NCBI GenBank assembly: GCA_032718475.1
Contig: JAUCBJ010006966.1
Location: 1 to 51,094 of the forward strand
Direction of reading: 5' to 3'
Source of the DNA: Nemertoderma westbladi
Lineage: Eukaryota; Animalia; Xenacoelomorpha
DNA: 51,094 nt
Part shown: positions 14,526-44,539 of the stretch, piece after piece
Layout of the letters: each line of letters begins with the position of its first letter
How positions within the stretch are numbered: position 1 is the stretch's first letter
Program-made: the position numbers and the translations under genes
Notes under the pieces: generated by a model
The model's database searches: none
What the model saw: only the letters and a program-made list of their open reading frames with translations
Told to the model about the DNA's origin: nothing

Positions 14526-14912
14526 GCCGATATTAGTACTGTAGGCCTACTAAGCTTACAGTAGAATTATTGAGTTAAAGGTGTACAATGATCGCTTAAA
14601 CCAATTATGTTTCTAGAGGGTTTAAACAATTGATTTAATTCAAATTAAATAATGGAGGGAGCAGGTTACAGTGGCTTTGTTTTCTAACCTAAACAATAAA
14701 CGAAACGTTGTTAGTTCACTTGCAGTCAATTTGCGGCACTAGCTATTATTAGTTAACATTCTCTATATTGAATGATTGGATGAGGATCGTTTATCTTAAA
14801 CGAATGCAGTATCGGAATATATACTGTAGATTTATGTGACATAATTATTTATGATGAGGTAATTTTTCTGCTTTAATATTATTTATCTTATTTATTTTAA
14901 GAATTTGTAAAT

Positions 14913-20504: not shown

Positions 20505-20589
20505 GGTATAAATAACGCATTTTTTTTTCAGAAACTCGAGTTAGCGCCTTTTTATTGCCATGCAACGATTAGTAGCCGATAGCAGTAAT

Positions 20590-20982
20590 GTCTCCGACAA
20601 CAGTCTTGACTACCACCGACAAAAACTAATAATACTAGCAACACACCGACATATGAAAAACACTAATGATTTTTACCATTACGCTATGCAATATAATAAT
20701 TTAAAACAGATAATATATGAAGGCGGTATTATATTTTAAAGAAATTATCATTACAAATTACACCACCGACAACAGGCCGACAGTGGACAATATACTTTGT
20801 TATAAATATTTGTACTGGAAATAAAAATTGTATAATCAATCATGTACTGAAATAGTTTACTAACATTGCCGAAGTTGTCGGTATACTGTCGGTTTGCGAT
20901 CTTACCTGTCGGTTTGTGTCTTTTGTTGTCGGTGGTATGCGAAAGGTGTCGGTGGTTGTCGGTGGCGTATTTAGTCAAACCC
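20590..20982. mobile_element. Degraded TIR element with (ca)ccgaca subterminal repeats
   Basis: ccgaca repeats on the left face tgtcgg repeats on the right. The right end reads ...tttagtcaaaccc; the left terminus is not identifiable. Confidence 0.45.
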
Positions 20983-21778
20983 AACGCCATTGTGTTTATG
21001 TGATATTATTGCATCTAGGCCTAATTAATCTGGTTTTGAATTTGAGTCGTGAACCCCATTAATTATGAGCACCACAACTTACTTAATTTAAATCCGGGTA
21101 CCTCAGTTTTATTTTCATGATAATAATTCTCAAGCACTAATATTTTAATTTTACAGGATCTTTATTGCTCCTGTTTTTGTACGTTGTACCATTTTTTTGC
21201 TTGTAGACAGAGCAAATTTTAATCCACCAATAATTTGGTTTTTATTCTAACCACCCATTATTTAATCCCTGTGTATTGATAAAACTTCTAATAACCGTAA
21301 CTCTGTGTCATTACATTATGTGCTCCACGAGCAGACGAGGTTTCACAAGTTGCCTTGCCAGTGGTCTCTCACTTAGACTCATTACTTCTATTTGTTGTGC
21401 ACGGCCCGTTTTATTTCAGTGCTTATACTGTCTGACTGTGTTATAGTGCAGTGTGATTTTAGTAATTTTGATTATAATAAATTAAATGCCAGCCAGTCTG
21501 GCGTAACCAGTTTAAAAAAAGATATGATGGTTGTATAATGTATATGGTAGGCCTACTTAACATACTACGTTCTGACGTTACTATGTACACCTACCAGCAG
21601 ACCAGAGCTACACATACAGCTGGATAGACTTACAGATCAAAACTGTCAGTGTTAGACTACATCACAGGACTAATCATCACATGACATAATGATCATCACA
21701 GGCTTACAGTGAGTGTGATTATCTCAGTACAGAACAGCAGTCCGGCAGTAGGGCTACTGGGCTAGGCAGCTAGGCATG

Positions 21779-23845
21779 CAGTAGGGAACACATGCCCAAA
21801 CAGGCAGTGCAGACTTTGCAAAATGCACTGCCATATTAGGCAGTTTTAGCCTAAATTTCTGATAAAATGTCAATTTTTATTAACTTCCTGCTTGAAGGGC
21901 CCCTTTTTTATTTCATGGGATGAAAATATAATATGTATTGCAAGGTAAATGGAAAATTTGGTAGACTTTCACAGTTGGGTTTTAGAGACATCAGACTTTG
22001 AAAATTGCTAGTCAAAAGCATGCACTGCCCAAAATAGCAGTGTTCTGCTTAATATAGCAGCATACTGTTTGAACTAGCAGTACAATGCTTAAAATGGCAG
22101 TGCAAAATCAGAAAATGCATTCAGCATCAGCATTACATACAATTCAGCAATTCTGATGGAAACAATATATATATATAAATAACCAATATTCAACAGATTT
22201 TATAAATCAATTTTTCACAGTTTGAAACACCAGTAGAACTGGGAGAGTTGGAAAAAGAAAGACCCGATCATATTTCTCCTGAATTTGTAAATAATATATC
22301 TGTATATTGTTTGTTGGTTTGTATTGTATTCTCTATATCCGTTACTATTGTCGAATGAATGACTTTGTATGTGTTTTAATCTACGTACTCCTATTGCCTA
22401 TTGTAAACATAAACGCTCATCTCAGTTTTAGCTTAATTTATACTATCGCAATATTAGCTTGTTAATTTTAATTTTTAATTTGTAATATTTTTATATTGTA
22501 GATATTCAGTCATTATGTTTGTTTTACTTGTGGCTTACTCTAATGTTTTACTATTGACGTTTTAACCTATCAGCCAGCTTATTGTACTTGTACACAAAAA
22601 TATTAGTATCAAATTTTGCTTTAAAAAAAATAAACTGTTGCAACATGTGTTTGTTAGAATATATTATCTTTATCTTTATTATTATTTTTTATTTATGTTG
22701 GTTTTACTCATTGCTCACTCTATATTTTACGTTTTCCATCTACTGTAAAACCAACATAATACTGTATCAATTTACAATTAATTGATTTATATATATCAAT
22801 TTTAGATTACTGGTCAGCCGGTAAGTCATACTGTATTAAAATTCTAGTTTATTATATAAATTTTGTGTGTGAACGTGTAAATCTAAATATAGGACTATTT
22901 TGTAGTATCTAAATTGGATTTAATTATTTCTTACTAATGATCTGATGACTTCTTATACAGTAATTTGTATTTTGTTAACAAATAATGCCTTATCAGTTAA
23001 TCCTTAAACAGTGCCTTATAAGAAATTTATTTCTACATCCATAAATTACTGAATTATTAAACAATAAATTAATCAAGGGGAGGTAAATTTCTGTACAGAC
23101 CCCTTAAAGATATGACAGTTTTAAATATGATTTATATTAGGCCTAATGATTTTATTACTAACTATTTACTATCAATAATTATCAGTTACCATATCAATCA
23201 GTCAATAAACATAAATTTTATCATTAGCGAACCGTAACTTTTAATATTAACAAACTATAGGCCTATAATACATATTGTTATAATGGCCACATAATCAGTA
23301 TATTAATATTTTATACATTATAATAAATATATTAATAAATTACCTGTCAGTGACTGTGTAAATTGTTAACCAGTTAACTGAATAACTAACAAAAACAAAA
23401 TATATAAATTGCTTTCAAAAGGATAGGCTTATATACTGTAGATAGATAGGCTGCTTAGCAGATACAGTACAGACAGAGATAGATAAACTCTGAAGGACTG
23501 AAGGATGCCTGGCATTGCCAGGCTCTCCAGCTCTCCTACAGTCAGTCAGAAGGAATTAATTCAATACCATAACTGCCATTTTAGGCAGTGCATGTTTTTG
23601 ACTTGCAATTTTCAATGTCAAATATCTCCAAAACCCAACCATGAAACTCTTACCACATTTTGTATTTACCTCCAATATATATCATATTTTCATCCAATGA
23701 AATAAAAATGGGGCCCTTCCAGCAGGAAGTTGATAAAAATTCACATTTTATCCGAAATTTAGGGTAAAACTGCCTAATATGGCAGTGCATTTTTCAAAAA
23801 TGGCAGTGCGTCTGTGCTGCCAATTCGGGCATGTGTTCCCTACTG
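21779..23845. mobile_element. Non-autonomous TIR element, CAG...CTG ends, 5-bp TSD (GCATG)
   Basis: GCATG|CAGTAGGGAACACATGCCC ... GGGCATGTGTTCCCTACTG|GCATG. The 19-bp TIR is perfect and continues imperfectly for ~250 bp. Confidence 0.93.
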
Positions 23846-24364
23846 GCATGTTACATTACAGCATTATAAGGTGATGCTTTGCTTACAGCTGTACAGGCTT
23901 ATATAGATAGGCCTCCTATCAGCCTATTCCTTTATTCAGTTGATAAATTTACCGAACTGAAGCCGAATGCGGGCGAATATATATATATGCCAATTCCCAT
24001 TATGCATAGGGCGCTTCCTGGCTTCCCCCCACTGTCCCAAGATATTAAATAGGCCTGCTATCACTATCAGCCTATCCCCTATTGAAAAGTTTTACATGTA
24101 CGCCGAGCACGTTCGGCGCAGCACTAGAACTTGCGCCGGGAGCTGGCGCAGTAATGTGCTACGCCGGGCAATGAGCCGGAAGGGTCGGCGCAGAGATGTG
24201 CATGATGTGCTACGCCGGCGGAGCACTGGCAATGGTAGAGATGCTGCACTCGGCGCAGCAGGCGTCGAAATATTCCCGGCGTCGACGCTGCAGAAATTGA
24301 CCCAGCGCCGGAGCAGGAATCAGCCCAGCACACCCGGCGTACATATTTGCCTGGCGCAGAAATC

Positions 24365-27300
24365 CAATAGTATCTACATCATTGTCCAGAATAGGGTGTT
24401 TCCCTTCACTTCTAAGGGGCTTTCTATTATTCCTACCTGTCCCAAATACGTTGTGTAATGATTTCCAACCTGTCCAATATAGGGGCATCCAATCAAATCA
24501 TCATATGAGCCAACTCCTCTTCATCGGACCAATACCAACATTCCTCAAGTTAGGCATCTCCCTTATTGGCTATATAATGTAAAGGTTAATGGAAAATTCC
24601 ACTGATATATATATAATCCAAGTGTCAACTACGAATCCAGGGCTCATTATAACAACCTATACTGGACAGAGCAACGTATTTGGGACAAGAGCTTGTTGAG
24701 GTATATGTACAGTGGAAATTCCCATTCTAATTAAGAGCATTTGGAATACTTGTTCCCTAGTTATGGTTAAAGATATACTGTGGGTGCCTTGCAAATGGCC
24801 TGTAAGACTGTGATGCATTATAGGCTATAGTGTCATCATAGTCACGTTATTTAATTTCATGTTGTAGAATTTATTCATATTGTGCAATTTATTCATGTTG
24901 TGCAATTTATTCATTGTGCAATTTATTCATATGGTGCAATTTATTCACTTTATAATAAATCTAAATACATTCTTATATTAATAATTAAATGACAATCAAA
25001 TTAGTGATATCGCAACCTCCTCCCCCGGACACAACTTCATCCCAAATAGTCCTTAATAAGTCTTAAATTTGACTCAAATAGGTTGTTAGTGTCCCATATA
25101 GGGTGTTTGTGTCCCATATAGGTTGATTTTGTCCAAAATAGCCTGTAGCTTTATCAAAATTATTTCAAATAGTTTATAAATGTAAAGGAATACTGAAAAG
25201 AATATCGACTTCATAATCATATCTTTATTTCCAATTTGTCCCAAACAGGTTGTTTATGTCCCATATAGGGTGTTTGTGTCCCACACAAGGTGTTTTTGTA
25301 CCAAATAGCATGTAACTTTCTCAAAATGATTTTACATAGTTTATAAATATGATGGAAATACTCAAAAGAAAATAGAATCCACTATCATAGCTTTAATTTA
25401 AATTTGTCCCAAATAGGTTGTTTGTGGCCCCTGTAGGGTGTTTGTGTCCAGCATATGGTGTGAAGTGCTTATAATGATTTCAAATAGTTTCGAAATGTAA
25501 TGGAATACTCAAAAGAATATAGCATTCACTATCACAGCTTTCATTAAAATTTGTCCCAAATAGGTTGTTTGTGTCCCATATAGGGTGTTTGTGTCCCAAA
25601 TAGCGTGTGACTTTCTCAAATTGATTTTAAATAGTTTCTAAATCTCATGGAATACTCAAAATAATATATAATTCACTACTATAGCTTTAATTTCAATTTG
25701 TCCCAAATAGGTTGTTTATGTCCCATATAGGGTGTTTGTGTCCCATATAGGGTGTTTGTGTCCCAAATTGCGTGTGACTTTCTCAAAATGATTTTACATA
25801 GTTTATAAATATAATGGAATACTAAAAAAAAATAGAATTCACTATCATAGCTTTAATTTCAATTTGTCACAAATAGGTTGTTTATGTCCCATATAGGGTG
25901 TTTGTGTCCCATATAGGGTGTTTGTGTCCCAAATAGCGTGTGACTTTCTCAAAATGATTTTACATAGTTTATAAATATAATGGAATACTCAAAAGAAAAT
26001 ATAATTCACTATCATAGCTTTAATTTAAATTTGTCCCAAATAGGTTGTTTTTGTCCCATATAGGGTGTTTGTGTGCCAAATAGCGTATGACTTTCTCAAA
26101 ATGATTTTACATAATTTATAAAGGAAAAAATATTTTTTTTATTATTCCATTATATTTATAAACTATTACACTAACACCCTATATGGGATAAAAACAACCT
26201 ATTTGGGACAAATTTAAATTAAAGCTATGATAGTGAATTATATTTTCCTCTGAGTATTCCATTATATTTATGAACTATGTACAATCATTTTGAGAAAGCC
26301 ACACGCTATTTGGGACACAAACACCCTATATGGGACACAAACACCCTATATGGGACATAAACAACCTATTTGGGACAAATTTAAATTAAAGCTATGATAG
26401 TGAATTCTATATTATTTTGAGTATTCCATTACATTTCGAAACTATTTGAAATCATTTTAAGCATTTCACACCCTATACGGGACACAAACACCCTATATGG
26501 CATACAAACAACCTATTTGGGACAAATTTTATTTAAAGCTATGGTAGTGGATTCTATTTTCTTTTGAGTATTTCCATTATATTTATAAACTATGTAAAAT
26601 CATTTTGAGAAAGTCATATGCTATTTGGCACACAAACACCCTATATGGGACAAAATCAACCTATTTGGGACAAATTTAAATTAAAGCTATGATAGTCAAT
26701 TATATTTTCTTTTGAGTATTCCATTATATTTATAAACTATGTAAAATCATTTTGAGAAAGTCATACGCTATATGGCACACAAACACCCTATATGGGACAA
26801 AAACAACCTATTTGGGACAAATTTAAATTAAAGCTATGATAGTGATTTCTATATTCTTTTGAGTATTCCATTACATTTCAAAACTATTTGAAGTCATTAT
26901 AAGCACTTCACACCCTATACGGGACACAAACAGCCTATATGGGACAAAAACAACCTATTTGGGACAAATTGAAATTAAAGCTATGGTAGTGAATTCTATA
27001 TTCTTTTGAGTATTCCATGAGATTTAGAAACTAATTAAAATCATTTTGAGAAAGTCATACGCTATTTGGCACAAAAACACCCTATATGGGACAAAAACAA
27101 CCTATTTGGGACAAATTTAAATTAAAGCTATGATACTGAATTATATTTTCTTTTGAGTATTCCATTATATTTATTAACTATGTAAAATAATTTTGAGAAA
27201 GTCACACGCTATTTGGAACACAAACACCCTATATGGGGCACAAACACCCTATATGGGACATAAACAACTTATTTGGGACAAATTGAAATTAAAGCTATGG

Positions 27301-28314
27301 TATTAAATTATATATTCTTTTGAGTATTCAATGAGATTTAGAAACTATTTAAAATCATTTTGAGAAAGTGACACGCTATTTGGGACACAAACACCCTATA
27401 TGGGAAACAAACACCCTATATGGGACACAAACAACCTATTTGGGACAAATTAAAATGAAAGCTATGATAGTGAATTCTATATTCTTTTGAGTATTCCATT
27501 ACATTTAGAAAATATTTGAAATCATTATACGTACTTCAGACCCTATACGTTACACAAACACCCTATATGGGACACAAACAACCTATTTGAGTCAAATTTA
27601 AGACTTATTAAGGACTATTTGGGATGAAGTTAAGTCTGGGGGAGGAGGTTGCGATATCACTAATTTGATTGTAATTAAATTATTATTATACGAATGTATT
27701 TAGATTTATTATATGTGAATAAATTGCACCACATGAATAAATTGCACAATGAATAAATTCCACAATGAATAAATTACACAACATGAATAAATTGCACAAT
27801 ATGAATAAATTGCACAACATGAAATGAAATAACGTCACTATGGTGACACTATAGCCTATAATGCATCACAGTCTTACAGGCCATTTGCAAGGCACCCACA
27901 GTATATCTTTAACCATAACTAGGGAACATGTATTCCAAATGCAATTATTTAGAATGGGAATTTCCACTGTACATATATATACCTCAACCAGCTCTTGTCC
28001 CAAATACGTTGCTCTGTCCAGTATAGGTTGTTATAATGAGCCCCGGATTCGTAGCTGACACTTGGATTATATATCAGTGGAATTTTCCATTAACCTTTAC
28101 ATTATATAGCCAATAAGGGAGATGCCTAACTTTAGGAATGTTGGTATTGGTCCGATGACGAGGAGTTGGCTCATATGATGATTTGATTGGATGCCCCTAT
28201 ATTGGACAGGTGGGAAATCATTACACAACGTATTTGGGACAGGTAGGAATAATAGAAAGCCCCATAGAAGTGAAGGGAAACACCCTATTCTGGACAATGA
28301 TGTAGACACTATTC
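24365..28314. mobile_element. ~3.95-kb foldback (near-complete palindrome) with 8-bp TSD CAGAAATC
   Basis: 24366-25080 is the reverse complement of ~27580-28313. The ends are CAATAG.../...CTATTC, flanked by CAGAAATC at 24357-24364 and 28315-28322. The symmetry axis is near 26120-26165. Confidence 0.92.
25040..27600. repeat. Satellite of ~146-167-bp units with 19/20-bp subrepeats, head-to-head inside the foldback
   Basis: tgtcccaaataggttgttt recurs every ~146-167 bp to ~26100, then as aaacaacctatttgggaca on the other arm. Confidence 0.95.
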
Positions 28315-28789
28315 CAGAAATCAGCCGAACCTAGCACCAGGCAGACAGTGAGACTGAGACAGCAGACATGCGTTCATCAGACCAACAGCACAGCACCCCA
28401 GCAACACAATAACAACTGGCCATGCAGGAGGCAGAAAGGAAACTCACACTGCAGCACTGGCTGACTGCAACTGGTCATTTATTTACGCGTATTAACCTTA
28501 TGCTGTTATGCAGTAGGCAGGTAGGCTATCACAGTTCCAGCTATCAGCTGATCAGTCATTATTGCTATTGGTCATAGTCAGTTTATTTATTTACATAATA
28601 TTGCTGTATTGTATAAGCTATATTTATATTATATTATATTATTTGGATGGAGACACCGCTGTCATAGAAGCGTATAAATAAAACTGCACATATAATAAAT
28701 CTAATAAATGAAGTTGAACAGTGAATAAAACAAAACGACTTATACTACTGTACTATGGCACTATTGATAATGAAACAATTTATTACCGA

Positions 28790-29540
28790 CACACATGTGT
28801 AACCATTGGAAATTACAGTTCAATGACTCCAAGTGCAAGGTCATGCATAAATCTAGGTTCTAGAAATCCCCAAGCAACTTTTTACACAATGAATGGACGG
28901 ACACTTTTATCGGCAACCGACTGACCGAGGAACGTGATTTTGGAATTACATTTACACCAGACTTGTCCTTCACAGCATCACAGCTCACCGCACAAAGACT
29001 CCAGCCCGCGCCATGCGAGTCGTACATTCAATACGAAGAACTTTTACATATTTGGAAGCTCCGATGTTTACCCTCTGACCCTGTTATACAAATCCTTTGT
29101 TCGGCCTCTCCTTTAATACGACACAGTTGTTTGTTCGCCATTCCTCCGACATGATAAATATTGAACGTCTTGAACAAGTACAACACCGTGTGGTCACTCG
29201 CCTTGTACAGTTGTACTATCGCTGGCTGAGTTGTCATATGAAAACCGACTACCTGCACTCAAACTACCGACATTAATATATCGCCGTGTACTAGCCGACC
29301 TTATAACAACATAGGCCTACAAGTTTATCAACGGGATTGACAAAATTGAGCGAAGTAATTTCTTCCAGTTTCGTTCCTAACTCCACAACAACTTTGTAGA
29401 CAGCGTTGTAAACATTTGGAATCCTTTACCATTACCGGAAAGTGTTGTTAATGCATGCAATACCCTTGGTACTCCATGATTGAGCATATTCAAAAATAGA
29501 CTAGACTGCGAAATGTCCCTTAAAATGAATATATAGTGAT
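28790..29540 (+). pseudogene. Degraded CR1 LINE 3' fragment
   Basis: Frameshifted translation gives WKLQFNDSKCKVMH, YTMNG, ERDFG, LYKSFVRPLL, LEQVQ and ADLITTYKFINGID. Confidence 0.8.
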
Positions 29541-30023
29541 ACTCCTGTGCGCCAAGTGGCAGTAGCGAAAGCGATATCTTTCGGATACAACGGATACAAT
29601 CTTTCGGATTTATTAAAATCTAGCTACAGTACCTATTGTTTTAATTTTTTCAATCTCAAAAAACATTTTTTTGTGTTAAATTTTAAAATAGTGTTTTTTT
29701 ATGTTTAATTGTTGTCCTATCTTTTGTAGTTACTTTACTTTGCGCGTTTTATTTCAGCAGTAATATTTTACTTAAAGCGACATACTGTACGGTACTACCT
29801 GCGGTACCAAATTTATGTTACGTATAACTACGTATTGTTGTGTTGTATCATATAGAGTATTGTAAACTTGTCCTTATTAATATGTTTGCCTTTAGTACTG
29901 TATGTTGTTGAAGCCCTTGAACCTACTGTTAGTATGCTTTGCCGTTTTTTAATTTAATTTTACTGTAATTTCATTTTTTTTTAATAATTAATATGCACCA
30001 ACTGTAAGTACTGTAAATAAACT

Positions 30024-30195
30024 ATAATTTTAATTATTTTACTAATTTTAATTATTTTACTAATTTTAATTATTTTACTAATTTTAATCATTTTACTAAT
30101 TTTAATTATTTTACTAATTTTAATTATTTTACTAATTTTAATTATTTTACTAATTTTAATTATTTTACTAATTTTAATTATTTTACTAATTTTAC
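30024..30195. repeat. 18-bp minisatellite (ctaattttaattatttta)n
   Basis: About 9 near-perfect copies. Confidence 0.97.
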
Positions 30196-30839
30196 CTGAA
30201 TACCATTATCCGTATTTTTATTACACTGTTACAATCAGACAATAGTACATACATACGCTTATTAGCGTACTTTGCAGATATGTGTTCATTTTATTTTAAT
30301 CTACTATACGTGTATGTACATGTGCAAAAATTAATATTTTATTGTTATTCTGGCGATATTAATAACATAACATAACATACAGCTAGTCATTATTCATTCA
30401 GACATACCGTATCTGTAGCATAGGCGTATACCGGACCACAGTACGTAGTATGTAGTAAAGTAGAACGTAGTACATAAATACAAGGACTAGGCCTACTGAA
30501 GTAGTCTTTAATATTCTTTCTGTAATTCATATTGTAACATTTGAGTAATTTCAAAAAATGTACACTTTACTTGACAACAAAAATTTACATGCAGTGTTTC
30601 TTAAGTAGTTGTTTCGTAATGTTACACTTTTTGGAATAAAACAACGTACCTACTGTACTTGTTGCATTTGTCTTTAAGGTTTTCCGTCTCTGTATCCTTA
30701 TTTTCATTTCACCCACCCACAACTTTCGTTCGTTTAAGTAACAACTCGGATTAGTGCAGCTGCAGTATTATAGATAACCGAATAAACTACAGGTACTGTA
30801 CAGTACAGTATAACAGGCATATTTTATGTTTTATACCAG

Positions 30840-31105
30840 TCAGCCCGGTGCAGCTTTGAGGAGCCGGTGGAAGATTTTTCACCCGGCGCAGCGTTTTGCA
30901 TTGCACAGAGCCGGCGCAGGATTTTTGCACCTGGCATGGGCGTGGGTTTGCACAGAGCCGGCGCAGGATTTTTTGCACCCGGCGTGGTTTTGCACAGAGC
31001 CGGCGCAGGATTTTTTGCACCCGGCGTGGTTTTGCTCAGAGCCGGCGCAGGATTTTAGGCACCCGGCGCCGCGTTCGGCGCAGAAAATAAAACTTTTCAA
31101 TAGGC
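30840..31105. repeat. ~40-bp GC-rich tandem repeat (tttgcacagagccggcgcaggattttttgcacccggcgtgg), probable subterminal region of a TIR element
   Basis: 4-5 copies, ending in aaaacttttcaatagg, which is the inverse of cctattgaaaagtttt at ~24078. That site is also followed by cggcgcag repeats. Confidence 0.75.
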
Positions 31106-31948
31106 TGATAGGGCCTATGTCTGTTCTGTATGTTGTGATTTGTGAGGGAGCTTTTTTCTTGTTGGAAGCTTGGTGGGAACAGAACAGATACCGGTCAGTC
31201 ACTGATCTATGCCAAAATTGGCATTTTTCAAAATTGGAAGTTTTCATGCCAAAATTGGAATTTTTGATATATTTTCTGTCCAGGGTCAGCCAATATTGGC
31301 TGGGGTTAACTAAATTTTGCAAAAAATTATATTTTGATGCATTTAGAAACTTTTGACGGAGATAAAAAAAAAATTCACCATGCTTTTGGTTTTTTATGAT
31401 TAAAATTTTGATACTGTAACCTCTAGTTCCAAAATTGGAAGTTTTTGACCTGCCGTTTTTGGCATTTTTTATTCTGATAAGAGGAAGAGTAGCTGTAGAC
31501 TGGCAGAGAGAGTGGTTGTAGTTGCTGAGTTGCAGCTTGCAGGCATATATCTGTATATTGGTATATTACCGAACTTTTGTTGTAAATGTGTCAGTCAGTG
31601 TCATGCTGTGACAGCTGTGATGTGACATTATACATTCTAGTGAGTTGCATGTGCTTGTGTGTGTAGTGTAGTATATGGTGTACGTACAGTAGGTACGGTA
31701 CTTCTGTACTTGCACTATCCAATATCCGATCACCTTAATGTTAACCTTGATAAGAAACGCCCTGGGTTGGGCCATACAACAATGTAAGATTTGTTCACAT
31801 TATCAATTTCAATACTTTGTCTCTGTTTGTGTTTAACTATACATTCTGACCTTTTTTTAACAATATTGCTGTACCATAGCTGTGTTAATGTAAAAACGTC
31901 ATCCCCATACTGCCATAGGCCAGCAGCAGACCTTACTGTAAATATTAT

Positions 31949-32259
31949 CACGCTTGAAGGGAAGCGAACTTATAGATCCTACTACCATAATAATAATAAT
32001 AAATAATACATTGCACCGAATTAGCTATTAATTTGCAAATTATAGTTTGTTGGTGAGTAACTAATCGCAACTACTCTCGAGTGTATGACTTATTTGCATT
32101 AGATCATTATAAGTCTGTAAGTACGGGTACTTTTATATGCTTAATTTTAATTGCTTAATGTAAAATGCAACACAGTACAATACTATAATATCAATTGAAC
32201 GTGGCCAGCACTACATGATGTGGGATCTAAGTTCGCCTCTCCTCTAGCAGTCTAGCGTG
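31949..32259. mobile_element. Small MITE with CAC...GTG ends
   Basis: The left end CACGCTTGAAGGGAAGCGAACTTA(TA)GATCC matches the inverse of the right end once an 8-bp scar within 32243-32255 is removed. No TSD seen. Related ggatctaagttc repeats occur at 32280-32375 and 43925-44070. Confidence 0.6.
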
Positions 32260-32413
32260 TGCTAAGGAATTTGTATAAATTGGGATCTAAGTTCACCTAG
32301 TTCGGATCTAAGGCTAAGCTCCTCCAGACTGTCGGATAGGATCTAAGTTCACTTAGTTAGGATCTAAGTTCAACCAGACTGCCAGTTTAGCCTAGCCCAG
32401 GGGTCAGCCTAAT

Positions 32414-32575
32414 CACCCAACTACACCCAACTTTCACCCAACTACACCCAACTACACCCAACTACACCCAACTTTCACCCAACTACACCCAACTTTCACC
32501 CAACTTTCACCCAACTACACCCAACTTTCACCAACTACACCCAACTTCAACACAACAGCATCCAACTTACACCAA
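32414..32575. repeat. (cacccaacta/cacccaacttt)n array in left TIR; inverse arrays at 34690-34905 and 36970-37140
   Basis: 10/11-bp units, reading GTTGGGTGTA/GTTGGGTGAAA on the G-rich strand. Confidence 0.95.
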
Positions 32576-32970
32576 ACTCTATACTGTATGGCACCTATCT
32601 TCCACAAATTACAATATGTACAGTAACAAACTCTGAACTTCTTTGAGGAATTGCTGAGATATGAACTTTTAAAAGTTGCATGTACTCGTGCTGTATTTTG
32701 CCATCACTGCCCTGCAATTATGAAAATAACTAACTAACATTTTATTTTTATTGCAGGTTGATTCTAGAATAATTGATGAATTTAGCAAAAAATATACAAA
32801 GGAGAGACACAGAGACTATTGACGAACGATCCAGATACCTATAGATGTCTACACATACCACGCATCAAAACTCCAAACTAAGCTACAGTACAAACTAAAC
32901 TGGCGCTGTGGGATTGCGGTGAAAATGAAAACGGTATTGATACACAGGAGGGTCACCGTCACAGCCTTAA

Positions 32971-33680
32971 GGGGGGGGTACACCATTTTGGTCCAAAATA
33001 TGTCGAAATTTTTTTTATGGTCTATTGTAATGCACCATTGAATGGTGTTTCCATATCTGAAAACCGCTATTTAATAGCTCTTTTAGTTTTCAAGTTATGT
33101 AAATTTCCATTTACGGAATCCTATTGAAATTACTATTACTATATATAATGAAAGGTCGATTATCTCCAAAAAAATTTTTTATGAAATTCTCGACTTCAAA
33201 ACCCTACTACTTCTACAATTTTTGAGCAATTAGTCTGAAACTTTCTGTGGGTGTCTAGATAGCCACCCTGCATAAAAGTATCAGGCAACTTTTCGAAATT
33301 TTTTGTTAATAAAATTTAATACTATTTATAAAAAACCTAAAAATTTGCATAAATTTGCAGCGCCACCTAGCGGTGCAGAATTATTTTAACAAAATTTCGC
33401 CTGATAGTTATGTTGCCCCATCTTTGATCTATCATATAAAAAAACTTTCATATGATTAGGTTCAAAACTGTAAAAGCCTTAGGGTTTTAAACGCAACCAA
33501 GTTTTTTTTGTTGTTAACTAGTATTAACTAATATTCAATAGCGAAAAAAAAAAATTTTCTGACCTGTCATGTAGAATAGCATCTTAGGCACCTATATGCC
33601 AAATTTTAGCCAAAATCAAACAATTTTGAAACGCTGAGAGTGATAAATCGAAGAGTTGGCCGAAAATGGTGTACCCCCCC
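32971..33680. mobile_element. 710-bp MITE with TTAA TSD and G-run termini (Kolobok-like)
   Basis: TTAA|GGGGGGGGTACACCATTTT ... AAAATGGTGTACCCCCCC|TTAA. The empty site (gtcgTTAAggctg) is visible in the opposite arm at ~36591-36603. Confidence 0.92.
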
Positions 33681-34929
33681 TTAACGACGAAATCGCATTA
33701 TTGGAAACTTCTGCTGTGGGAATAGCAATGCAGATAATTCGTACAAAGTTAATGGACATAAGTTCTATATTATACAGTATGTTTAATGCAATTATAATAA
33801 TGTAATTATCCTTTATGTATCATAGAATACAAGAAAATAAACTGTAACATTATTTTCAGCTTCTTTATCTTAAACTTTATAGCCTTTATACTGTATTAAT
33901 TAATTTTTAACGAAACAACAGAAATAATTTTAGAACTTTTTACATTTCTCATTACATTTTACATGTCTCAAGTTTACACTCCATTTGGCTCCCTGATCCA
34001 ATCTTAATGGTTAGCAAATAAAGTACTTTCTGTATAATATAGGCGAATAATAAATTTCTCATGGAACCAAAATAATAAACGAAAGATAAGATCAAATTAA
34101 TATAAAGGCCACGAAGTTTAGAATAAAACTGTTGAAAATAAAGACTACTGTATGTTACAATCTTTCTTGTAATATGATACAAAGGATAATTATAATATTT
34201 TATTGTTAAATTTCTGAATTACCGTACTTAACGCTTGTCCTTGGACAAGCCGTAAATACAGTAGATAGATGGATTATTTGCGGCTCGTCCATAGACGAGC
34301 GTTAAGTAATAACAATATATTAATAAATTTATTAGTAATAACAATAAATTAACAATAAAACAACATATTATAGTGTATAATGTACTTTTATCTCACTTCG
34401 GTCCCTCGTTTCAATATTTCACTAACTCGAATATGATAATAACTCGAAATAAATTTTCCAGTATTTACTAATTATCATAGTGCGTTAAGGCTCGCCTTTA
34501 CTACGTGGCTCGCATGTTCTCGCTGTTATGCCTCAGAACTAAACATTAGATATATTGTACTGTATGTCCTACTCATCTTCACATCCAAAAAAGCGACGTA
34601 GATTAGGATTTGTATGGTTTTTGACAATTTTATAATTTGCTTTATAATTTTTTATTTTCAAAAATCCTGACCTGCGAGAAAGTGGTGAAAGGTAAGTGTA
34701 GTTGGGTGGAAGTGAGACAATGTTGAGTGTACTGTAGTTGGGTGATAGTTGGGTGTAGTTGGGTGGAGAATTGGGTGTAGTTGGGTGAAAGTTGGGTGTT
34801 GTTGGGGGTAGTTGGGTGAAAGTTGGGTGTAGTTGGGTGAGAGTTGGGTGGAAGTGGAGTGTAGTTGGGTGAAAGTGAGTCAAAGTTGAGTGTAGTTGGT
34901 TGGAGAGTTTGGTGTTCTGTGGGACGAGT

Positions 34930-35080
34930 CACGCAGTCAGGGCAAGCCTTAGCGCACAATTGCAATTAGTAAAAATAGGGCAAAATTTCATCTCCAGTCG
35001 GTCGTTCTGTCCGCTTGTCTGTCTGTAACGAAAAATTCATTCGTAAGTAACTTTTGAAGATTTTCGCCAACTGATCCACA
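34930..35080 (-). mobile_element. Fragment of a Helentron/DINE-1-like non-autonomous repeat
   Basis: The reverse complement matches 50880-51000 (aaaatcttcaaaagtta…cagacagaca…gaaattttgcc…tactaatt…ctaagg). A third partial copy is at 34455-34515. Confidence 0.55.
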
Positions 35081-35202
35081 TTAAAGCCCCATGAGAAACC
35101 CCACTTGGGATCCGACTATGTAGCAACATACCTAAAGTGTGTGACATACTGTATTATTCATTCACATGTGAGAATTTAGCTTGGAAACCTCAATGTTGAT
35201 CA

Positions 35203-35690
35203 GATAGACTTTGCTGATGACTTAGGAGTACTCTCAGAATCATTAGAGGGAGCCCAACGGCTCCTCAGCTCATTAGAACATTCTGCTTCTAGTGTTGGTC
35301 TTTTTATTACCTCCAGAAAGACCACAATTTTGACAGTTAACTTTGAAAGTCCTCAGCAAGTCTCTGATCGGATGAGCATAAGCTCAAAGGATGGTATGCT
35401 TGAGCATGTGGACAACTTCTGTTACCTGGGATCATGGATCCGGAAGTCAGGTGAGGACCTTCGAATACGTAAGGGAAAGGCATGGGCAGCCTTGAATAGG
35501 CTTTCCAGGATTTGGAAGTCACCGAGAATTAATCGGAAACTCAAGGTCCGATTATTTAGAGCAGCAGTAGTTCCAGTACTCCTCTACGGGAGTCCATGCT
35601 GGGCTCTAACTGCTGAGGACACCAAATCTCTGGATGGCACATTCACAAGAATGCTACGCCGGGTTCATTGTGTCAAGTACAATGCACACA
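35203..35690 (+). pseudogene. Internal RTE-clade RT fragment
   Basis: IDFADDLGVLSESLEGAQRLL...FCYLGS...KVRLFRAAVVPVLLYGSPCW...RMLRR. It lacks the family's 3' end and is flanked by a 27-bp direct repeat. Confidence 0.9.
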
Positions 35691-36150
35691 TTAGTTTGGA
35701 AACCTCAATGTTGATCACATGAGGATTTTCGAATGGGTGGAATGTCTGAAAGATTAAATACACTTCTCCCATTTCGTTGTTTGTAATAAAATAAGCTGAA
35801 TATTGTCATATCCTACTGTACATATACTGTACAGTATGTACTAGAGACCACAAGCCGCGTCTATATGATTACGTTGATCAACGTCTGCAATTCTCTACCC
35901 TAGTGTGATGAATTATTATTTCTACTACTGTAAGATCTGTAATGTATAACGATCTTATCGATTCTCATACTGTAGAGATCTTGTCCATTCTGGCATCGCC
36001 TGTATGTGAAGATCATAATAAGTTCCTTGCAGAAATTCCCTTGACCTGTACAGATCTTACCAGATCCCCTTTTAGTTTATCAAAAATGTAAAATGTTCTA
36101 AAATTATTGCTGTTGTTTCGTTAAAAATTAATTAATATAAAGGCCATAAA

Positions 36151-36360
36151 GTTCGCCCATGTGAATAATACCAGGATTTCACTTTTCGGTCGACATTTTA
36201 TTGGAATTTTATGTATGAAGATTTTTTATTTTTTTTAATTTATCTTTTTGATACGTTTCGTTTTGATACGGCTAAATTTCGTTTATTGTTTTGGTTAGAT
36301 TCAGTCCTTTTGTAACCTGTGATTTTAATGAAAACCTGGGATTCTTCACATGGGGGCAAC
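36151..36360. mobile_element. ~200-bp MITE-like insert in right arm of the Mutator-like element
   Basis: cccatgtgaataataccagg ... cctgggattcttcacatggg inverted ends; absent from the left arm. Confidence 0.6.
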
Positions 36361-37689
36361 TGCAAAGTTAAATATATAACGGCAGAAAGTGTTTACATGG
36401 GCCCAAGATTAAAATAAAGCTGCTGAAAATAATGTTACAGTTCTTTTTCTTGTATTCTATGATACATAAAGGATAATTACATTATTATAATTGCATTAAA
36501 CATACTGTATAATATAGAACTTATGTCCATTAACTTTGTACGAATTATCTGCATTGCTATTCCCATAACAGAAGTTTCCAATGCGATTTCGTCGTTAAGG
36601 CTGTGACGGTGACCCCCCTGTGTATCAATACCGTTTTCATTTTCACCACAATCCCAAACAGCGCCAGTTTAGTTTTATACTGTAGCTTGGATCGTTCGTC
36701 AATAGTCTCTGCGTCTCTCCTTTGTATATTTATTGCTAAATTCATCAATTATTCTAGAACCAACCTGCAAAAAATATAAAACGTTAGTTTGTTATTTTCA
36801 TAATTGCTCAGCAGTGGGGGCAACATACAGTACATGAAACATTTAAAAGCTCATATCTCAGCAATTCCTCGAAGAGTTTGTTACTGTACATATTGTAATT
36901 TGTGGAAGTTTGGTGCCATACAGTAGGTATAGTTTGGTGTAAGTTGGATGCAGAGTGGAAGTGCAGTGGAAGTTGGGTGTAGTGGGGTGGAACTGTGTGG
37001 GTGTAGTTGGCTGAAAGTTGGGTGTAGTTGGGTGAAAGTTGGGTGTAGTTGGGTGAAAGTTGGGTGTAGTTGGGTGTAGTTGGGTGAAAGTTGGGTGTAG
37101 TTGGGTGTAGTTGGGTGAAAGTTGGGTGTAGTTGGGTGTTTAGGCTGACCGCTAGCCCAGTAGCCTAGCAGCCTCGGTCAGTCGGTGACAGACTAACAGA
37201 GCAGCAGAGGGTGAGTCGAGTCTTTAGCATATCGTTGCAACTTGTAGACTGGAAATGTTTGAATGCTAATACTGTAATACAGTAATAACAATTAAGTCGG
37301 TTAATGAAATGAAATGGAACAAAACATGATAGAGTCTACACACAGTCCAGCAGTCTGACAGTACCGGTACACTGATAGCTGGATAGGCTTCTTTAGTTCC
37401 TCGGCGACGGTCCGTTTTTGGAAGGTTTTTGCAGGTTTTTGAATGTTATCACTAGGTTTTTTTAGTGTTTCTGTCAGGCTGTATTTGTATTACGGTACTT
37501 GATTGATTAGATTGACCTGACTGCTGGACTGCCTGACAGCCTGAGCTTGGTTGGTCCATCAGTTCATTCGTTATGGTTCGATATATTATATGGCTGTATG
37601 GGGCTGCATTTCTTCAAGATTATATTTTATACAGCACTGGCAGTTGGCTGACTGGCAGTTGGCAGACTGGTAGATAAGCCTACGATATA

Positions 37690-40378
37690 CAGTCGGTGAT
37701 ATAGGCGATTTTGGACTTATTCCAATTTTGGAACTTTGTGCAAGGGTAGATTCCGAAATCGGAATACACTCCAAAATTGGACTTTTATAAATTAAAAAAA
37801 AATATTTTAAAGTCCTGCAAGTATATTTCCATCATAAATTCTATCATTTTTCAATAAATATATGTTTTTTGTGCCAAATTCAATATTCCTACCATGCTTT
37901 TGCAGAAATGTATTCATACATTCCAAAATTGGACTTTGTTTGCAGAGATGCTATGGAGGATGACTGCTGTAACCTGTAACACTAGTAACAAGGTACAGGG
38001 GTCCGACCATAAGCAGATAAGGCTATATGGGCACGACTAGAGCTGTACCCTGTACAGCTGTACAGCACAGTTTTACGATAGAAGCACAGCTGCAGCTAGA
38101 CCCTAGACCAAGCAGCAGCTTGGTCTATTGGTGATGGTGACATTCCTGGGCTTCCAATTAGGAAGCCAAGTTTCGATCCCTAGAAGGTCCTTGTGAGTGG
38201 TCAATAAATGGGAACCAAGGCAACATTGGAAAACATAATGGAAGAGGTTTACTATAGAATATCATCCATGGTGCGATGGTGGTGAACAGGCATTCCTTGG
38301 CTTAATGAGCCTAAAAAGATTATCCCATTCAATCAGCCTCAGCCAATATCATGAAGTGGGGTGTTAGCTATGATGGAAAATAAATAGACCTCTTAATCGT
38401 TTCAATATATTGTTTTAGTGTCTCATGTGCTGCGCGAAGGCCTTTGAACCGTTTCAACAGATTGTTTTAGTATCTCACATACTGCGCGAACGCGAAGGTA
38501 TCTTAAACGTTTCAACAGTTTGTTACACAATGTTGGAGTCTTGGAGTACGCCACGTGCTGCGCGAAGGTCTCTTAAACGTTTCAACAGCTTGTTACACAA
38601 TGTTACAGTGCGCCACGTGCTGCGCGAAGGTCTCTCAAACGTTTCAACAGATTGTTACACAATGTTACAGTAAGCCACGTGCTGCGCGAAGGTCTCTTAA
38701 GCATTTGAACAGTTTGTTACACAATGTTACAGTGCGCCACGTACTGCGCGAAGGTCTCTCAAACGTTTCAACAGATTGTTACACAATGTTACAGTAAGCC
38801 ACGTGCTGCGCGAAGGTCTCTTAAACGTTTCAACAGCTTGTTACACACTGTTACAGTTCGCCACATGCTGCGCAAAGTTCTCAAACGTTTCAACAGATTG
38901 TTTCAGTACCCCATGTGCTGCACGTAGGTCTATTAAACGTTTCAACAGCTTGTTAACAATGTTACAGTACGCCACGTGCTGCGCGAAGGACTCTTAAACG
39001 TTTCAACAGCTTGTTACACAATGTTGGAGTACGCCACGTGCTGCGCGAAGGTCTCTTAAACGTTTCAACAGCTTGTTACAATGTTACAGCGAGCCACGTG
39101 CCCCGTGAAGGTCTCTTAAACGTTTCAACAGTTTGTTGCACAATGTTGGAGTACGCCACGTGCTGCGCGAAGGTCTCTTAAACGTTTCAACAGCTTGTTA
39201 CACAATGTTACAGATCTCCACATGCTGCGCGAAGGTCTCAAACGTTTTAACAGATTGTTTCAGTATTTCACATACTTCGCGAAGGTCTCTCAAACGTTTC
39301 ATCAGATTGTTATACAATGTTACAGTATCGCATGTGCTGCACGAAGGTCTCTTAAACGTTTCAACAGATTGTTTCAGTATCCAACATGCTGCACGAAGGT
39401 CTCTTAAACGTTTCAACAGATTGTTACAGTATCCAACATGCTGCGCGAAGGTCTCTTAAACGTTTCAACAGCTTGTTACACAATGTTACAGATCTCCACA
39501 TGCTGCGCGAAGGTCTCAAACGTTTTAACAGATTGTTTCAGTATTTCACATACTTCGCGAAGGTCTCTCAAACGTTTCATCAGATTGTTATACAATGTTA
39601 CAGTATCGCATGTGCTGCACGAAGGTCTCTTAAACGTTTCAACAGATTGTTTCAGTATCCAACATGCTGCACGAAGGTCTCTTAAACGTTTCAACAGATT
39701 GTTTCAGTATCCAACATGCTGCACGAAGGTCTCTTAAACGTTTCAACAGATTGTTACAGTGCCCCACATGCTGCACGAAGGTCTCTTAAACGTTTCAATG
39801 GATTGTTTAGTATCTCAAATACTGCGTGAAGGACATGGAAGGTATCTTAATCATTTCAACAGATTGTTACAGTTCTAGTTTTTAAAATCTATTTACGTAT
39901 GTACATTGTACGTACATTGACAAAGTGAAACAAAATAGAGTAAATAAGATAAATTTCATTCAGAAAGACAACTGTGGACTTAAAGTGCTAAGTGCTGCTA
40001 TGTGCTGTTCAATACAAACAATACGCTACCCATTCTGCCATTTTACTGCAGTGTACTGTACCTACAGCGTAGTACAGTAGTATAGTGCTGATGGAAAGAC
40101 AAAATTGGACCTAAAGTCCAAAATTGGATGCGCAAAACTTTAAATGTCGGTTGTCTTTGTGGTGCACCGTGAAATTTTCTCGTGCACGGTCAAAGCTCTT
40201 ATTTTGTAGTAAAGAACATGTAGGTTAAATTTCAGATCCCGTCTGAAAAAATTGTAGGCCGTGGAAAATTCACTGTAATTCATATCAAAATTAATTCCGA
40301 TATTGGAATGGAAGTCCAATTTTGACTTAGCAAGTTCCAAAATTGGATCAAGTCCAAAATCGCCTATATCACCGACTG
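37690..40378. mobile_element. Non-autonomous TIR element, CAG...CTG ends, 5-bp TSD (ATATA)
   Basis: ATATA|CAGTCGGTGATATAGGCGATTTTGGACTT ... AAGTCCAAAATCGCCTATATCACCGACTG|ATATA. Perfect 29-bp TIR with ccaaaattgga subterminal repeats. A related solo end (CAGTCACTGATCTATGCCAAAATTGG) is at 31196. Confidence 0.92.
38395..39872. repeat. Satellite of ~44-61-bp units (gctgcgcgaaggtctcttaaacgtttcaacag...)
   Basis: About 25 copies, including an exact 278-bp higher-order duplication (39160-39438 vs 39438-39716). Confidence 0.96.
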
Positions 40379-40564
40379 ATATAGGTACCGGTATTGTGGT
40401 ATTACAATAATCGATTTGATATTTGTTTTAAAAAGTACTAGTCTGTAGTCTGTGGGTTTCATGCATGGACTGATGGAACCAAAATATATTTTTGTCATCA
40501 GAAATTTTCAAAAAATAAGCAATTTGGCTCTTTTTTGTGATCAAAAACCTAAAAACCTAGTTTT

Positions 40565-42821
40565 CAGCCATTCCAGCGTAACGGTCGTGATATTCCGCAT
40601 GGGTTTCCGGTATTAATGAGTATTCTAAGGGCACATGGAAGAATGATATTGAAAAGATATTACTATGATATGATCCTAAGATATGGACCTTTAATAAAAT
40701 AGAAACCGCACTGGAATACATTACGTTTTATTGATTGTATTCCAGTTTAAAGTTGGCGTAACGGTCGTCGTGACCGGGTTTTCTTGTACGCTGATTTTAA
40801 TAGAAGGCTTTTTACATTCCGCAATTGAACACATCTACCATTTTTGGTGCTAAAATGAAAAGTGCAAGTAACAAGTATTTTTCAAATTAATGAAAACAAC
40901 TAGACTTGTAGGAATGGTATTTATTTCAATTACATATAGGTTTTCTGGTACGCCGATTTCAATGGAAGGCTTTTTAAATTCCGCAGTTGAACACATCTAC
41001 TATTTTTGGCGCTAAAATGAAAAGTGCAAGTAAACAGCATTTTTCAAATTAATGAAAACAACTAGACTTGTAGGAATGGTGTTTATTTCAATTACATACA
41101 GGTTTTCTGGTGCGCTGATTTCAATGGAAGGCTTTTTAAATTCCGCAGTTGAACACACCTACCATTTTTGGTGCTAAAATGAAAAGTGCAAGTAACCAGC
41201 ATTTTTCAAATTAGTGAAAACAATAAGAATTTTAGGAATGGTATTTATTTCAATTACATACAGGTTTTCTGGTACGCCGATTTCAATGGAAGGCTTTTTA
41301 AATTCCGCAGTTGAACGCACCTACTGACCTACCGTTTTTGGTGCTAAAATGAAAAGTGCAAGTAACCAGCATTTTTAAAATTAGTTGAAACAATAAGAAT
41401 TGTAGGAATGGCTGAATGGTATTTATTTCAATTACATACAGGTTTTCTGGTACGCCGATTTCAATAGAAGGCTTTTTAAATTCCGCAGTTGAACACATCC
41501 ACTGACATACCATTTTTGGTGCTAAAATGAAAAGTGCAAGTAACGAGCATTTTTCAAATTAGTGAAAACAACTAGAATTGTACGAATGGTGTTTCTTTCT
41601 CTATTACATACAGTTTTTCCTGCTGTTCTGGTACGCCGATTTCAATGAAAGGCTTTTCAAATTCCGCAGTTGACTGGTTGAACATACCTACCATTTTTGG
41701 TGCTAAAATGAAAAGTGCAAGTAAACAGCATTTTTCAAATTAGTGAAAACAACTAGACATGTAGGGATGGTGTTTATTTCTATTACATACAGGTTTTCTG
41801 GTGCGCTGATTTCAATGGAAGGCTTTTTAAATTCCGCAGTTGAATAGGCCTACACCTACAATGTTCGGTGCTAAAATGAAAAGTGCAAGAGTAAATAAAC
41901 ATAATTTTTCAAATTTTGCAGATTATATGTAAGCAGCCATACGTTCTACTGTTCTATGTAGTATTGTAAGCTGATATTTTGGTTATTATGTGTACTACCT
42001 GATTACAGTATAATTATAATTACATCCCACAGCAGCAGTGGTATCATAAATGATACAAATTAATTTATACTGTATAATAATGATTCCTAAGTTTGTGTCA
42101 CAACCGTTACGGTCATAAGTGCTCTTATGGCACATTATAGGTTAAGAAGAAACCTTTGTACACCCAATATTACAATTATCACTTTGTGTGGAATCATATT
42201 CCAAAATGTAATCTAAATGGAGAGTAAAAAAGACGACCTTTCGTTCCTTGAATTATACATGCTATGCTAATATTCCCATTTCCCACATGTTAATGTCACG
42301 ACCGTTACGCTGATTACTACAACTGGAACATACAGTCAAGTTAAACTACATGACTCAAACAATTGATACGAACCACCTAACAATAGATATAAAAGATTAT
42401 AACCATTACTGCCGGGGATATGGAGATATTGGAAAAACTTGTTCTTCAGCGTAACGGTCGTGACATATTTTCCATCCACTCATTACAATGCTATTAGAAA
42501 AATATTTATTAGTTGTACATTATTTAACCGACATAGCTAATTACTACATAGATATAAGATTCTGAAAAACATATGGCATTGCCAGTTTGGTAATTATCAT
42601 GCCATTTTGGTTTGTATGTAATTATGCCAAAAATATTGAATTTTTGGCATTTTTTAAATCACATTTTGCGGACGCTGTAAAAAAAATTGGCGAGGGTTGT
42701 GGAACATTTGAAAGCAGTTTTATGAAGCACAATATGTGTGCTACACACTCAATACAAAATAAATGCATTTCTAAGTACTTTCATTTTTCACCAAAAGGTT
42801 TACTTTTGCTTGGAATGGCTG
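40565..42821. mobile_element. TIR element (CAGCCATTCCA...TGGAATGGCTG) carrying a 162-bp array, nested in a hAT-like relic
   Basis: 11-bp TIR with TTTT on both flanks and cgtaacggtcgtga subterminal motifs. The host relic has aaaaccta repeats and ends ...tttgccagccctg at 42910. Confidence 0.65.
40775..41900. repeat. 162-bp tandem repeat, ~7 copies
   Basis: ttccgca recurs at 40817, 40979, 41141, 41303, 41481, 41662 and 41832 (spacings 162, 162, 162, 178, 181, 170). Confidence 0.96.
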
Positions 42822-44539
42822 TTTTACTGTTTTAGGCTTTTTTCAAATTTTGGGTTTTGACAAAAATCGACAAAAACCTAGGTTTACAAAAACCTACTTT
42901 GCCAGCCCTGACTATCAGACTATGATTATAGCTCATCTATACTTCGTGCTGCGCGAAGGCCCCTTTAGTCAGTTAGTGCAGTAGCAGAGTAGTTTAAGCT
43001 AAATTTTGTACCGGTATATTACAACCGTATTACCTCGTATTAGTCATTACTATAATATAGAATATGAAATTAATTACTGTCAGACTTTGGAGCATTATTT
43101 ATTAGCATCTTATTTGATTAGGCCATCAGTAGAGTTCTAGATTCTAGACCGTAGTTGAGAAAAAGATATTATTTATTGTATTACCTAACCTACAGACCTA
43201 CCTATGTTAAAAAACTCAGGATCCCATCTGGCTTTTCTGGGATACGCAGCAGGAGCAGATAATATTCTACATCCAGGCCAGACTGGAATCCATACACTTT
43301 GCGCCAGATTAATCCGGCGCGCTTTACAATAAAAATAAAAACGCGCCAAGTTGGCGCTTGGCGTGCTCGAAAATCTCAAAACGCGCCGGCTCTGGCGCAT
43401 GGCGCTCCTACAAATATAAACCGGAATGGCCACAACCTATGAACGTGCCAAAGGGTACTTAGCATGGGGTCAACACAACACATTGTCAGTGACCAATGCA
43501 TTAAGACAGTAAGTATCCCAGGAAATACATGGTCGGCTTTTTGTCGACGAAATATAGCTGTCTTTTCTGCTTTTCGCTTGGCTAAAAGGCCGTATTGCCA
43601 GCTGCCAGCTGTGGGAGTGATGAAGGGGGAGGGTCGTAAGCAAGGTGGATCGTAACTAAGTTGGGAGAGGTATTGAAAAAATAAAATTGCATTAGGCCTA
43701 CGTGCTACGTACCGTAATTTATGACCAGCACAGCAACAGACTGACAGATGAATTGAATACCGGTAGGGTAGCCCAATACTGAATACACTGGAATACTGGT
43801 ATAAGGACTCAGGACTACTCTATTAAAATACAGAAATATAATAATACTGAGACAACTGATAAAATACTAATAATATAATTAATTAATATACAGATATATA
43901 GGCCTAATAAATAATATACTGAGACAAGTTCGCTTTGCTTTCAACGTGGGATCTAAGTTCGCTTCGCGACTAACATGATGATTACCAAACAGCCAAAGGC
44001 TTTTATTAATAGCATAAATTGGGATCTATGTTCAACTAGTTAGAATCTATGTTCGGAAATATCTAAGATCATCAAAATCAGGCCTCTAAAAATACAGTAG
44101 CGACTAAGCGAGTAGCCGAGTAGATGTAGCATGTAGGCCTACAAGTTCTCTCCTAAGTGCTTAACATATTATATTTAACATCATGAGATGTATCATTACC
44201 AGTAGCGTAGCGGGTAGCATCCAACTGTCCATGTCCAATGAGTAGAAAGGATTCCAAAAAACCTTTAGAGGGCCTATTATTATGTATTACTGTATTAGTA
44301 GAGTTAAGGATGCTCCTTCCCAGAATTTAGTCTTACAGTCTTATGTTACGCCTACACATGTCTACAGTCCACAGTCCTTTACGGCTGATCGGTGCGATTC
44401 GGTGGTAGTTCTGTGATCTGGGTTAGTAGGGTCTGGCCTTGGCCTACTGCCTGACTGCGATAGGCTGCCTGTGTCGCTGTGTGCCCAGGTCAGCAGGTGT
44501 GCCTGGCCTACTTATATCAGTATATCAGTATATGGAGCA

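Follow-up and report, generated by a model that had tools for sequence, protein, structure and literature searches.

What process has repeatedly duplicated five bases on either side of the triplet CAG or CTG in the DNA upstream of a chimaerin-like gene of Nemertoderma westbladi (Xenacoelomorpha)? The window, that is, the whole stretch analysed here, comprises the 51,094 nucleotides of contig JAUCBJ010006966.1 (assembly GCA_032718475.1, forward strand), and the motif in question consists of two identical 5-mers flanking one of these triplets (N5-CAG-N5 or N5-CTG-N5). An original prediction, made from the sequence alone, read the motifs as excision scars of a transposon that duplicates five target bases and leaves three bases of its own end behind. 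The results presented below make it very probable that the motifs are footprints of excised cut-and-paste transposons resembling two elements of the same window, E1 and E2, and that excision proceeded by a 3-nt staggered cut; this confidence covers the footprint origin and the cut, not the enzyme family.

When every 5-base duplication with three bases between its copies was counted, the window proved to contain 76 exact copies of the motif, 38 with CAG and 38 with CTG, and the second-commonest spacer triplet, TAT, was found ten times. Shuffled sequences preserving 3-mers or 4-mers, over the whole window or within 1-kb blocks (100 each), contained 1.8-3.4 motifs on average and at most 9 in 400 runs; the original prediction had roughly estimated one or two by chance. 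All 19 examples named in the original prediction are exact and lie where it placed them; the motif that it described is thus real, although its count of 42 was too low, as there are 69 copies in 21593-44533 and 76 in the window. About 5% of CAG/CTG triplets lie within a 5-bp duplication, compared with 0.37% for the other 62 triplets, and duplications around CAG/CTG number 10 at 4 bp, 76 at 5 bp, two at 6 bp and one at 7 bp. The suggested check against other triplets, other lengths and shuffled sequence therefore did not overturn the footprint idea, the enrichment being restricted to CAG/CTG and to length 5. Spacers predicted from filling-in or hairpin opening are at background (CAGCTG 0, CATG 1, CAGTG 2 and CACTG 2). 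Copies with one mismatch are modestly over-represented (21 versus 7.6 in shuffles, with a maximum of 17 in 60 shuffles), as expected of ageing scars, which suggests that most scars are young and some are older. Remnants of two bases (CA or TG) numbered 15 versus 3.1 in a first count but were not specific under a stricter one, and no such class is claimed. The 76 motifs do not equal 76 independent events at this locus, since at least three, within E1, are common to a family consensus and one more is common to a paralogous repeat.

The motif is regional, not window-wide. Seventy-five of the 76 copies lie in the interval upstream of the chimaerin-like gene (20000..44538), with dense zones at 20000-24360, 28313-32400, 37140-38390 and 39870-44540, whereas the 17.6 kb of other non-coding DNA hold a single copy (4559..4571; binomial p of about 1e-16, for a boundary picked after the data were seen). 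None was found inside any of the four long open reading frames (ORFs) of the window: the coding sequences of two host genes are free of it, as had been noticed before, and so are two retroelement ORFs. Within the dense zones the scars are no closer to one another than chance, with 10 pairs at 25 bp or less versus 9.2 expected, and stacking of scars was accordingly discarded.

That the motifs represent insertions of eight bases into ordinary DNA is seen where related copies of the same sequence supply an empty site. Three exact scars in a 162-bp tandem array (40777..41889), at 41319, 41407 and 41669, face sister units that have one copy of the 5-mer and are exactly eight bases shorter; decayed scars are present in the array near 41490 and 41618. 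Contigs from four public runs (X1 to X4), compared with the window over 19900-24400, add two further cases; no RNA run was listed among those carrying the sequence. For the scar CATGG-CAG-CATGG (20002..20014), which lies in a high-copy repeat, four X1 contigs join the first 5-mer directly to the sequence past the second, and for ATGAA-CAG-ATGAA (20049..20061) one X3 contig omits the same eight bases (eight loose letters only). The expectation that unscarred counterparts would differ by eight bases was thus borne out at five sites, all of them paralogous. The repeats at 19900-20350 and 20500-21100 are of very high copy number, with X1 depth of up to 40,000 versus 7-11 for unique contigs. Records of X3 and X4 inside E1 with 8-12 gaps, the places of which are not listed, were not counted as empty sites, and neither was an X4 record over 21374-21518 whose eight gaps would fit an empty site at 21427.

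The same runs bear on whether the motifs are an artefact of assembly or sequencing, an explanation with a practically negligible chance of being right. In favour of an artefact, X1 may be the window's own source sample. X1 short-read contigs over 21491-21807 and 23819-24105 nevertheless contain eight motifs and both E1 junctions with no differences, and X2, a different sample from a different study, has a contig that covers 21327 and 21427 with no gaps. Three motifs inside E1 moreover belong to the consensus of its family, as described next.

Elements with inverted-repeat ends in CAG and 5-bp duplications, which the footprint reading had predicted, were found twice in the window. E1 (21779..23845) is a gene-less element of 2067 bp flanked by the duplication GCATG and containing eight scars, and E2 (37690..40378) is a gene-less element of 2689 bp flanked by ATATA and containing five. 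Both have CAG...CTG ends whose outermost 16 bases form a perfect inverted repeat, and both are flanked by exact direct repeats of 5 bp, a combination that did not occur once in 50 block shuffles. Alignments of the two arms extend over about 280 bp in E1 (84% identity) and about 50 bp in E2 (94% identity); the first 17 bases of the two elements match at 11 positions, each element has its own palindromic subterminal repeats, and E2 carries an internal tandem array. E1 displays all four general features of non-autonomous cut-and-paste elements with terminal inverted repeats, namely inverted ends, a target duplication, many copies and the lack of a transposase gene. Its body is covered by X1 contigs at a depth of 300-350, compared with 7-11 at its unique junctions (depth being no measure of copy number), and these contigs differ from the window at 8 of 449 and 14 of 960 letters, which fits a young multi-copy family. 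In the X1 record over 21900-22357 all nine gaps (6+2+1) fall away from the motifs at 22104, 22140 and 22295, so these three are part of the E1 family consensus and were carried in rather than made at the locus.

Several other candidates with similar ends were evaluated. An older CAG-ended pair at 18871-20504, with 13 of 16 inverted bases, a 6-of-8 direct repeat and three scars inside, is possibly an ordinary hAT element with an 8-bp duplication. A third pair, at 40574-42312, has no exact duplication and resembles internal repeats of a larger element, and it was rejected. Matches to the end pattern in metagenomes (55 loci), viral contigs (5 and 0) and prokaryote genomes (0 and 1) did not extend beyond the seed and were ascribed to chance; motif density in these 61 loci is 0.06 per kb versus 1.5 per kb in the window.

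The duplicated 5-mers were originally described as arbitrary, and they are indeed diverse, with 70 distinct words among the 76 motifs, but they are not free of preference. G is avoided at positions 1-2 (9 of 152 versus 28 expected, p of about 1e-5) and C at positions 4-5 (9 of 152 versus 27 expected, p of about 1e-5), and either set of motifs, CAG or CTG, shows the bias when taken alone. Such a palindromic target bias is what a two-ended integrase would give. It also bears on processes that do not involve a transposase, such as slippage during replication, templated end-joining or the insertion of extremely truncated retroelements, which would add CAG or CTG together with a short duplication. 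In favour of these processes, direct repeats of short length exceed the shuffles 1.3-4-fold at many periods in the window, and LINE-type ORFs are present. However, a one-ended process should be directional, whereas the bias is palindromic in each orientation class; the 5+3 geometry is fixed, and only two of the 64 triplets are involved. The intact elements E1 and E2 share both the CAG ends and the duplication length with the scars. An origin by any of these processes is very improbable.

Under the footprint reading, elements like E1 and E2 would be moved by an enzyme encoded elsewhere, for which the Tc1/mariner kind is the likely candidate. Upon insertion, the element ends would be joined to the target with a 5-nt stagger, leading to the duplication of five target bases that is present at E1 and E2. 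Excision would cleave the transferred strand flush with the element end and its complement 3 nt into the element, and each donor end would then keep a 3'-CAG overhang. Pairing of the two overhangs would leave a single A:A mismatch in the middle, and depending on the strand to which it is repaired, N5-CAG-N5 or N5-CTG-N5 would result, equally often. The cut positions and the repair route are those that we infer from the scar itself; such either-way mismatch repair would yield equal numbers of the two forms, which matches the observed 38:38.

Several observations weigh against this reading. The clustering of scars in one interval of 24.5 kb is left without explanation; CpG depletion was considered as its cause and does not explain it, the observed/expected ratio being 0.74 in dense zones and 0.81 in poor ones. 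When the scars are collapsed, short duplications of period 5-7 are still 2.7-4-fold enriched in dense zones versus 1.7-2-fold elsewhere, and as these leftover duplications show no clear preference for CA/TG spacers, other duplication processes are active in the dense zones as well. For only five of the 76 scars does the window contain a paralog; one of these paralogs is a self-match, and that of the scar at 20404 bears the motif in decayed form, with one mismatch. Empty, occupied and scarred states were not observed together at any one site, nor was any scar shown to be polymorphic between individuals. The E1 duplication, GCATG, begins with the disfavoured G, and 15 of the 76 scars also have a disfavoured base. 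No Pfam transposase family was detected among 149 window proteins (146 ORFs of at least 55 aa outside tandem arrays and three long ORFs), nor in E1 or E2. Finally, Tc1/mariner elements in general duplicate TA (PMC10045372).

The scar-rich interval ends at the chimaerin-like coding sequence (44539..45958, plus strand), which encodes SH2, C1 and RhoGAP domains and is scar-free inside. The 100 bp preceding its first ATG contain four scars (44446-44533), and if this region is a 5' untranslated region or promoter, the scars are reshaping regulatory DNA. The best among 120 matches listed for the chimaerin-like protein are 51-55% identical and come from many animal phyla; it is about 50% identical to vertebrate, hemichordate, spider and coral relatives alike, with no close relative among the matches listed. 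The second host gene, a sarcosine/dimethylglycine dehydrogenase-like ORF named from its DAO, FAO_M and GCV_T domains (14901..17615, plus strand), is likewise scar-free, and each of the two genes consists of one long, intronless open frame. The retroelement ORFs of the window are of BEL/Pao and LINE type. An 833-aa frame with a DUF1759 domain in Pfam (2-2500, minus strand), which runs off the window, is presumably BEL/Pao gag-like, and a 767-aa frame on the plus strand encodes a reverse transcriptase according to Pfam (5620-7923).

Other mobile elements interrupt or neighbour the dense zones. A foldback element (24365-28314) has an 8-bp duplication, and its inverted arms of about 1.8 kb are composed of 147/167-bp repeats; X3 and X4 contigs with loose ends at 24364 join to the sequence beyond it and represent empty paralogs. 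A G-ended element (32401-37151) has long inverted arms that are imperfect and a duplication of 9 bp, features from which we take it to be MULE-like; it harbours a TTAA-flanked insert (32971-36594) and nested inverted arms. No motif was found inside the foldback element or inside the G-ended element with its nested inserts. The 9-bp duplication (32392 and 37152) includes part of the scar TAGCC-CAG-TAGCC (37153..37165), so this scar would be older than the insertion of the G-ended element. A TTAA-flanked element with CCC...GGG ends around a 28/49-bp tandem array (11768-13635) is presumably piggyBac-like. Scar-like words with TA duplications are enriched and evenly spread window-wide (TA-GGCC-TA 15 versus 0.7, TA-CCGG-TA 9 versus 0.7 and TA-CAG/CTG-TA 86 versus 17 expected), and one unit of the 162-bp array, at 41845, is six bases longer than its sister units owing to an inserted TAGGCC; several TA-targeting families have probably left scars in the window too.

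The scars, a kind of mutation that is easy to count, amount to 600 bases, or 2.4% of the 24.5-kb interval, at about one per 330 bases, and each adds eight bases and hence shifts the reading frame. If the footprint reading is true, they constitute a base-precise fossil map of landing sites that reaches the chimaerin-like start codon, and one regular expression could map past transposition genome-wide and show which genomes carry the family. An enzyme that excises precisely and has little target preference would also be of interest to those who build transposon tools. New here are CAG...CTG elements with 5-bp non-TA duplications, empty sites that are eight bases shorter, and the palindromic bias of the 5-mers. 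Transposon superfamilies are defined by duplication length and cutting chemistry, and each candidate enzyme would break one rule, either as a Tc1/mariner enzyme without TA or as a hAT enzyme that leaves its own end bases behind.

Transib and RAG combine a 5-bp target duplication with CAC ends. E1 and E2 share the duplication length with Transib, but their ends are CAG...CTG rather than CAC...GTG, and the window contains only two N5-CAC-N5 and one N5-GTG-N5 motifs. In hAT, Transib, MULE and RAG reactions the flanks form hairpins that are opened and joined by host enzymes (PMC5499845). While the footprint reading itself gained support from the elements with the predicted ends and the paralogs shorter by eight bases, the accompanying claim that the combination fits no named superfamily was not established: 5-bp duplications are a feature of hAT5, a named group of animal hAT elements reported from invertebrates and fish and attributed to Kapitonov and Jurka 2007 (as cited in PMC12730594 and PMC9004415), pogo-type duplications vary in length (PMC7386202), and the Pfam search of the window yielded no transposase to classify. 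A hAT5 transposase could generate the same footprints by nicking 3 nt inside the element, such that the flank keeps CAG, provided that it forms no hairpin or that the hairpin is always opened at one place. Besides the duplication length and the animal hosts, E1 and E2 have subterminal repeats, and their first three bases, CAG, agree with the hAT terminal consensus (T/C)A(A/G)NG (PMC6027215). The G that this consensus has at the fifth position is, however, replaced by A in E1 and by C in E2, although the consensus describes hAT in general and not hAT5 specifically, and the arms of about 280 and 50 bp contrast with the 10-25 bp typical of hAT (PMC3942097). Host repair of hAT flank hairpins should moreover produce variable scars, again for hAT in general (PMC5499845), rather than one exact form retaining element bases 76 times; here that form dominates, the named variants are at background and small excesses occur at some other spacings. 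No description of hAT5 end sequences or footprints was found in the literature searched, which covered PMC4455052, PMC10741241 and bioRxiv 10.64898/2026.07.01.735963 but not Repbase Reports, and such end sequences may bear on the classification. A hAT5 enzyme is thus rather unlikely.

A similar but slightly less doubtful standing may be given to an unclassified DDE lineage in which a mariner-like staggered cut evolved independently, the view closest to the original prediction. None of the groups described in the literature consulted has ends in CAG, makes a non-TA duplication of 5 bp and leaves a remnant of 3 nt, and Repbase uses general names for non-autonomous elements that cannot be classified (PMC4455052). 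No protein found in the window points to such a lineage, and the scar geometry and end trinucleotide of Sleeping Beauty, together with the variable duplication length in pogo and hAT, make a known fold the simpler guess. No description of the N5-CAG/CTG-N5 scar itself was encountered in the literature searched, of which Repbase Reports formed no part. On balance we lean towards an undescribed lineage of animal transposases that inserts almost anywhere with a 5-nt stagger and excises in the manner of Sleeping Beauty, be it a TA-free Tc1/mariner-type enzyme, which would be the first in animals, a hairpin-free hAT5 enzyme or a new group.

With regard to these alternatives, the failed hAT terminal consensus and the uniformity of the scar place a Tc1/mariner-type enzyme ahead of hAT5, and we tentatively favour it for E1 and E2, at somewhat short of even chances. 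Members of the IS630-Tc1-mariner group can lengthen their duplications, up to TAA and TAAA in pogo-type Fot and Fot-like elements (PMC7386202) and to 3 bp in Zator (PMC10045372); unlike those of E1 and E2, however, their targets are still fixed or TA-based and do not exceed 4 bp. The TA duplication of the group is absent here, as E1 is flanked by GCATG and E2 by ATATA, with no TA at its right junction, and the 5-base duplications of the scars comprise 70 distinct words. By contrast, the footprint of the group, in which the first or last 2-4 element bases remain between the duplicated targets (PMC6943129), has its counterpart in the scars, whose spacer is the terminal CAG or CTG of E1 and E2. 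When Sleeping Beauty excises, it cleaves the non-transferred strand within the element, and the site is left as TA-CAG-TA or TA-CTG-TA (PMC6943129); the scars described here likewise hold CAG or CTG between the copies of the target duplication, occur in both forms and correspond to elements with CAG...CTG ends. The system works like Tc1/mariner excision, yet it is not filed as a member of that group because it misses the TA target.

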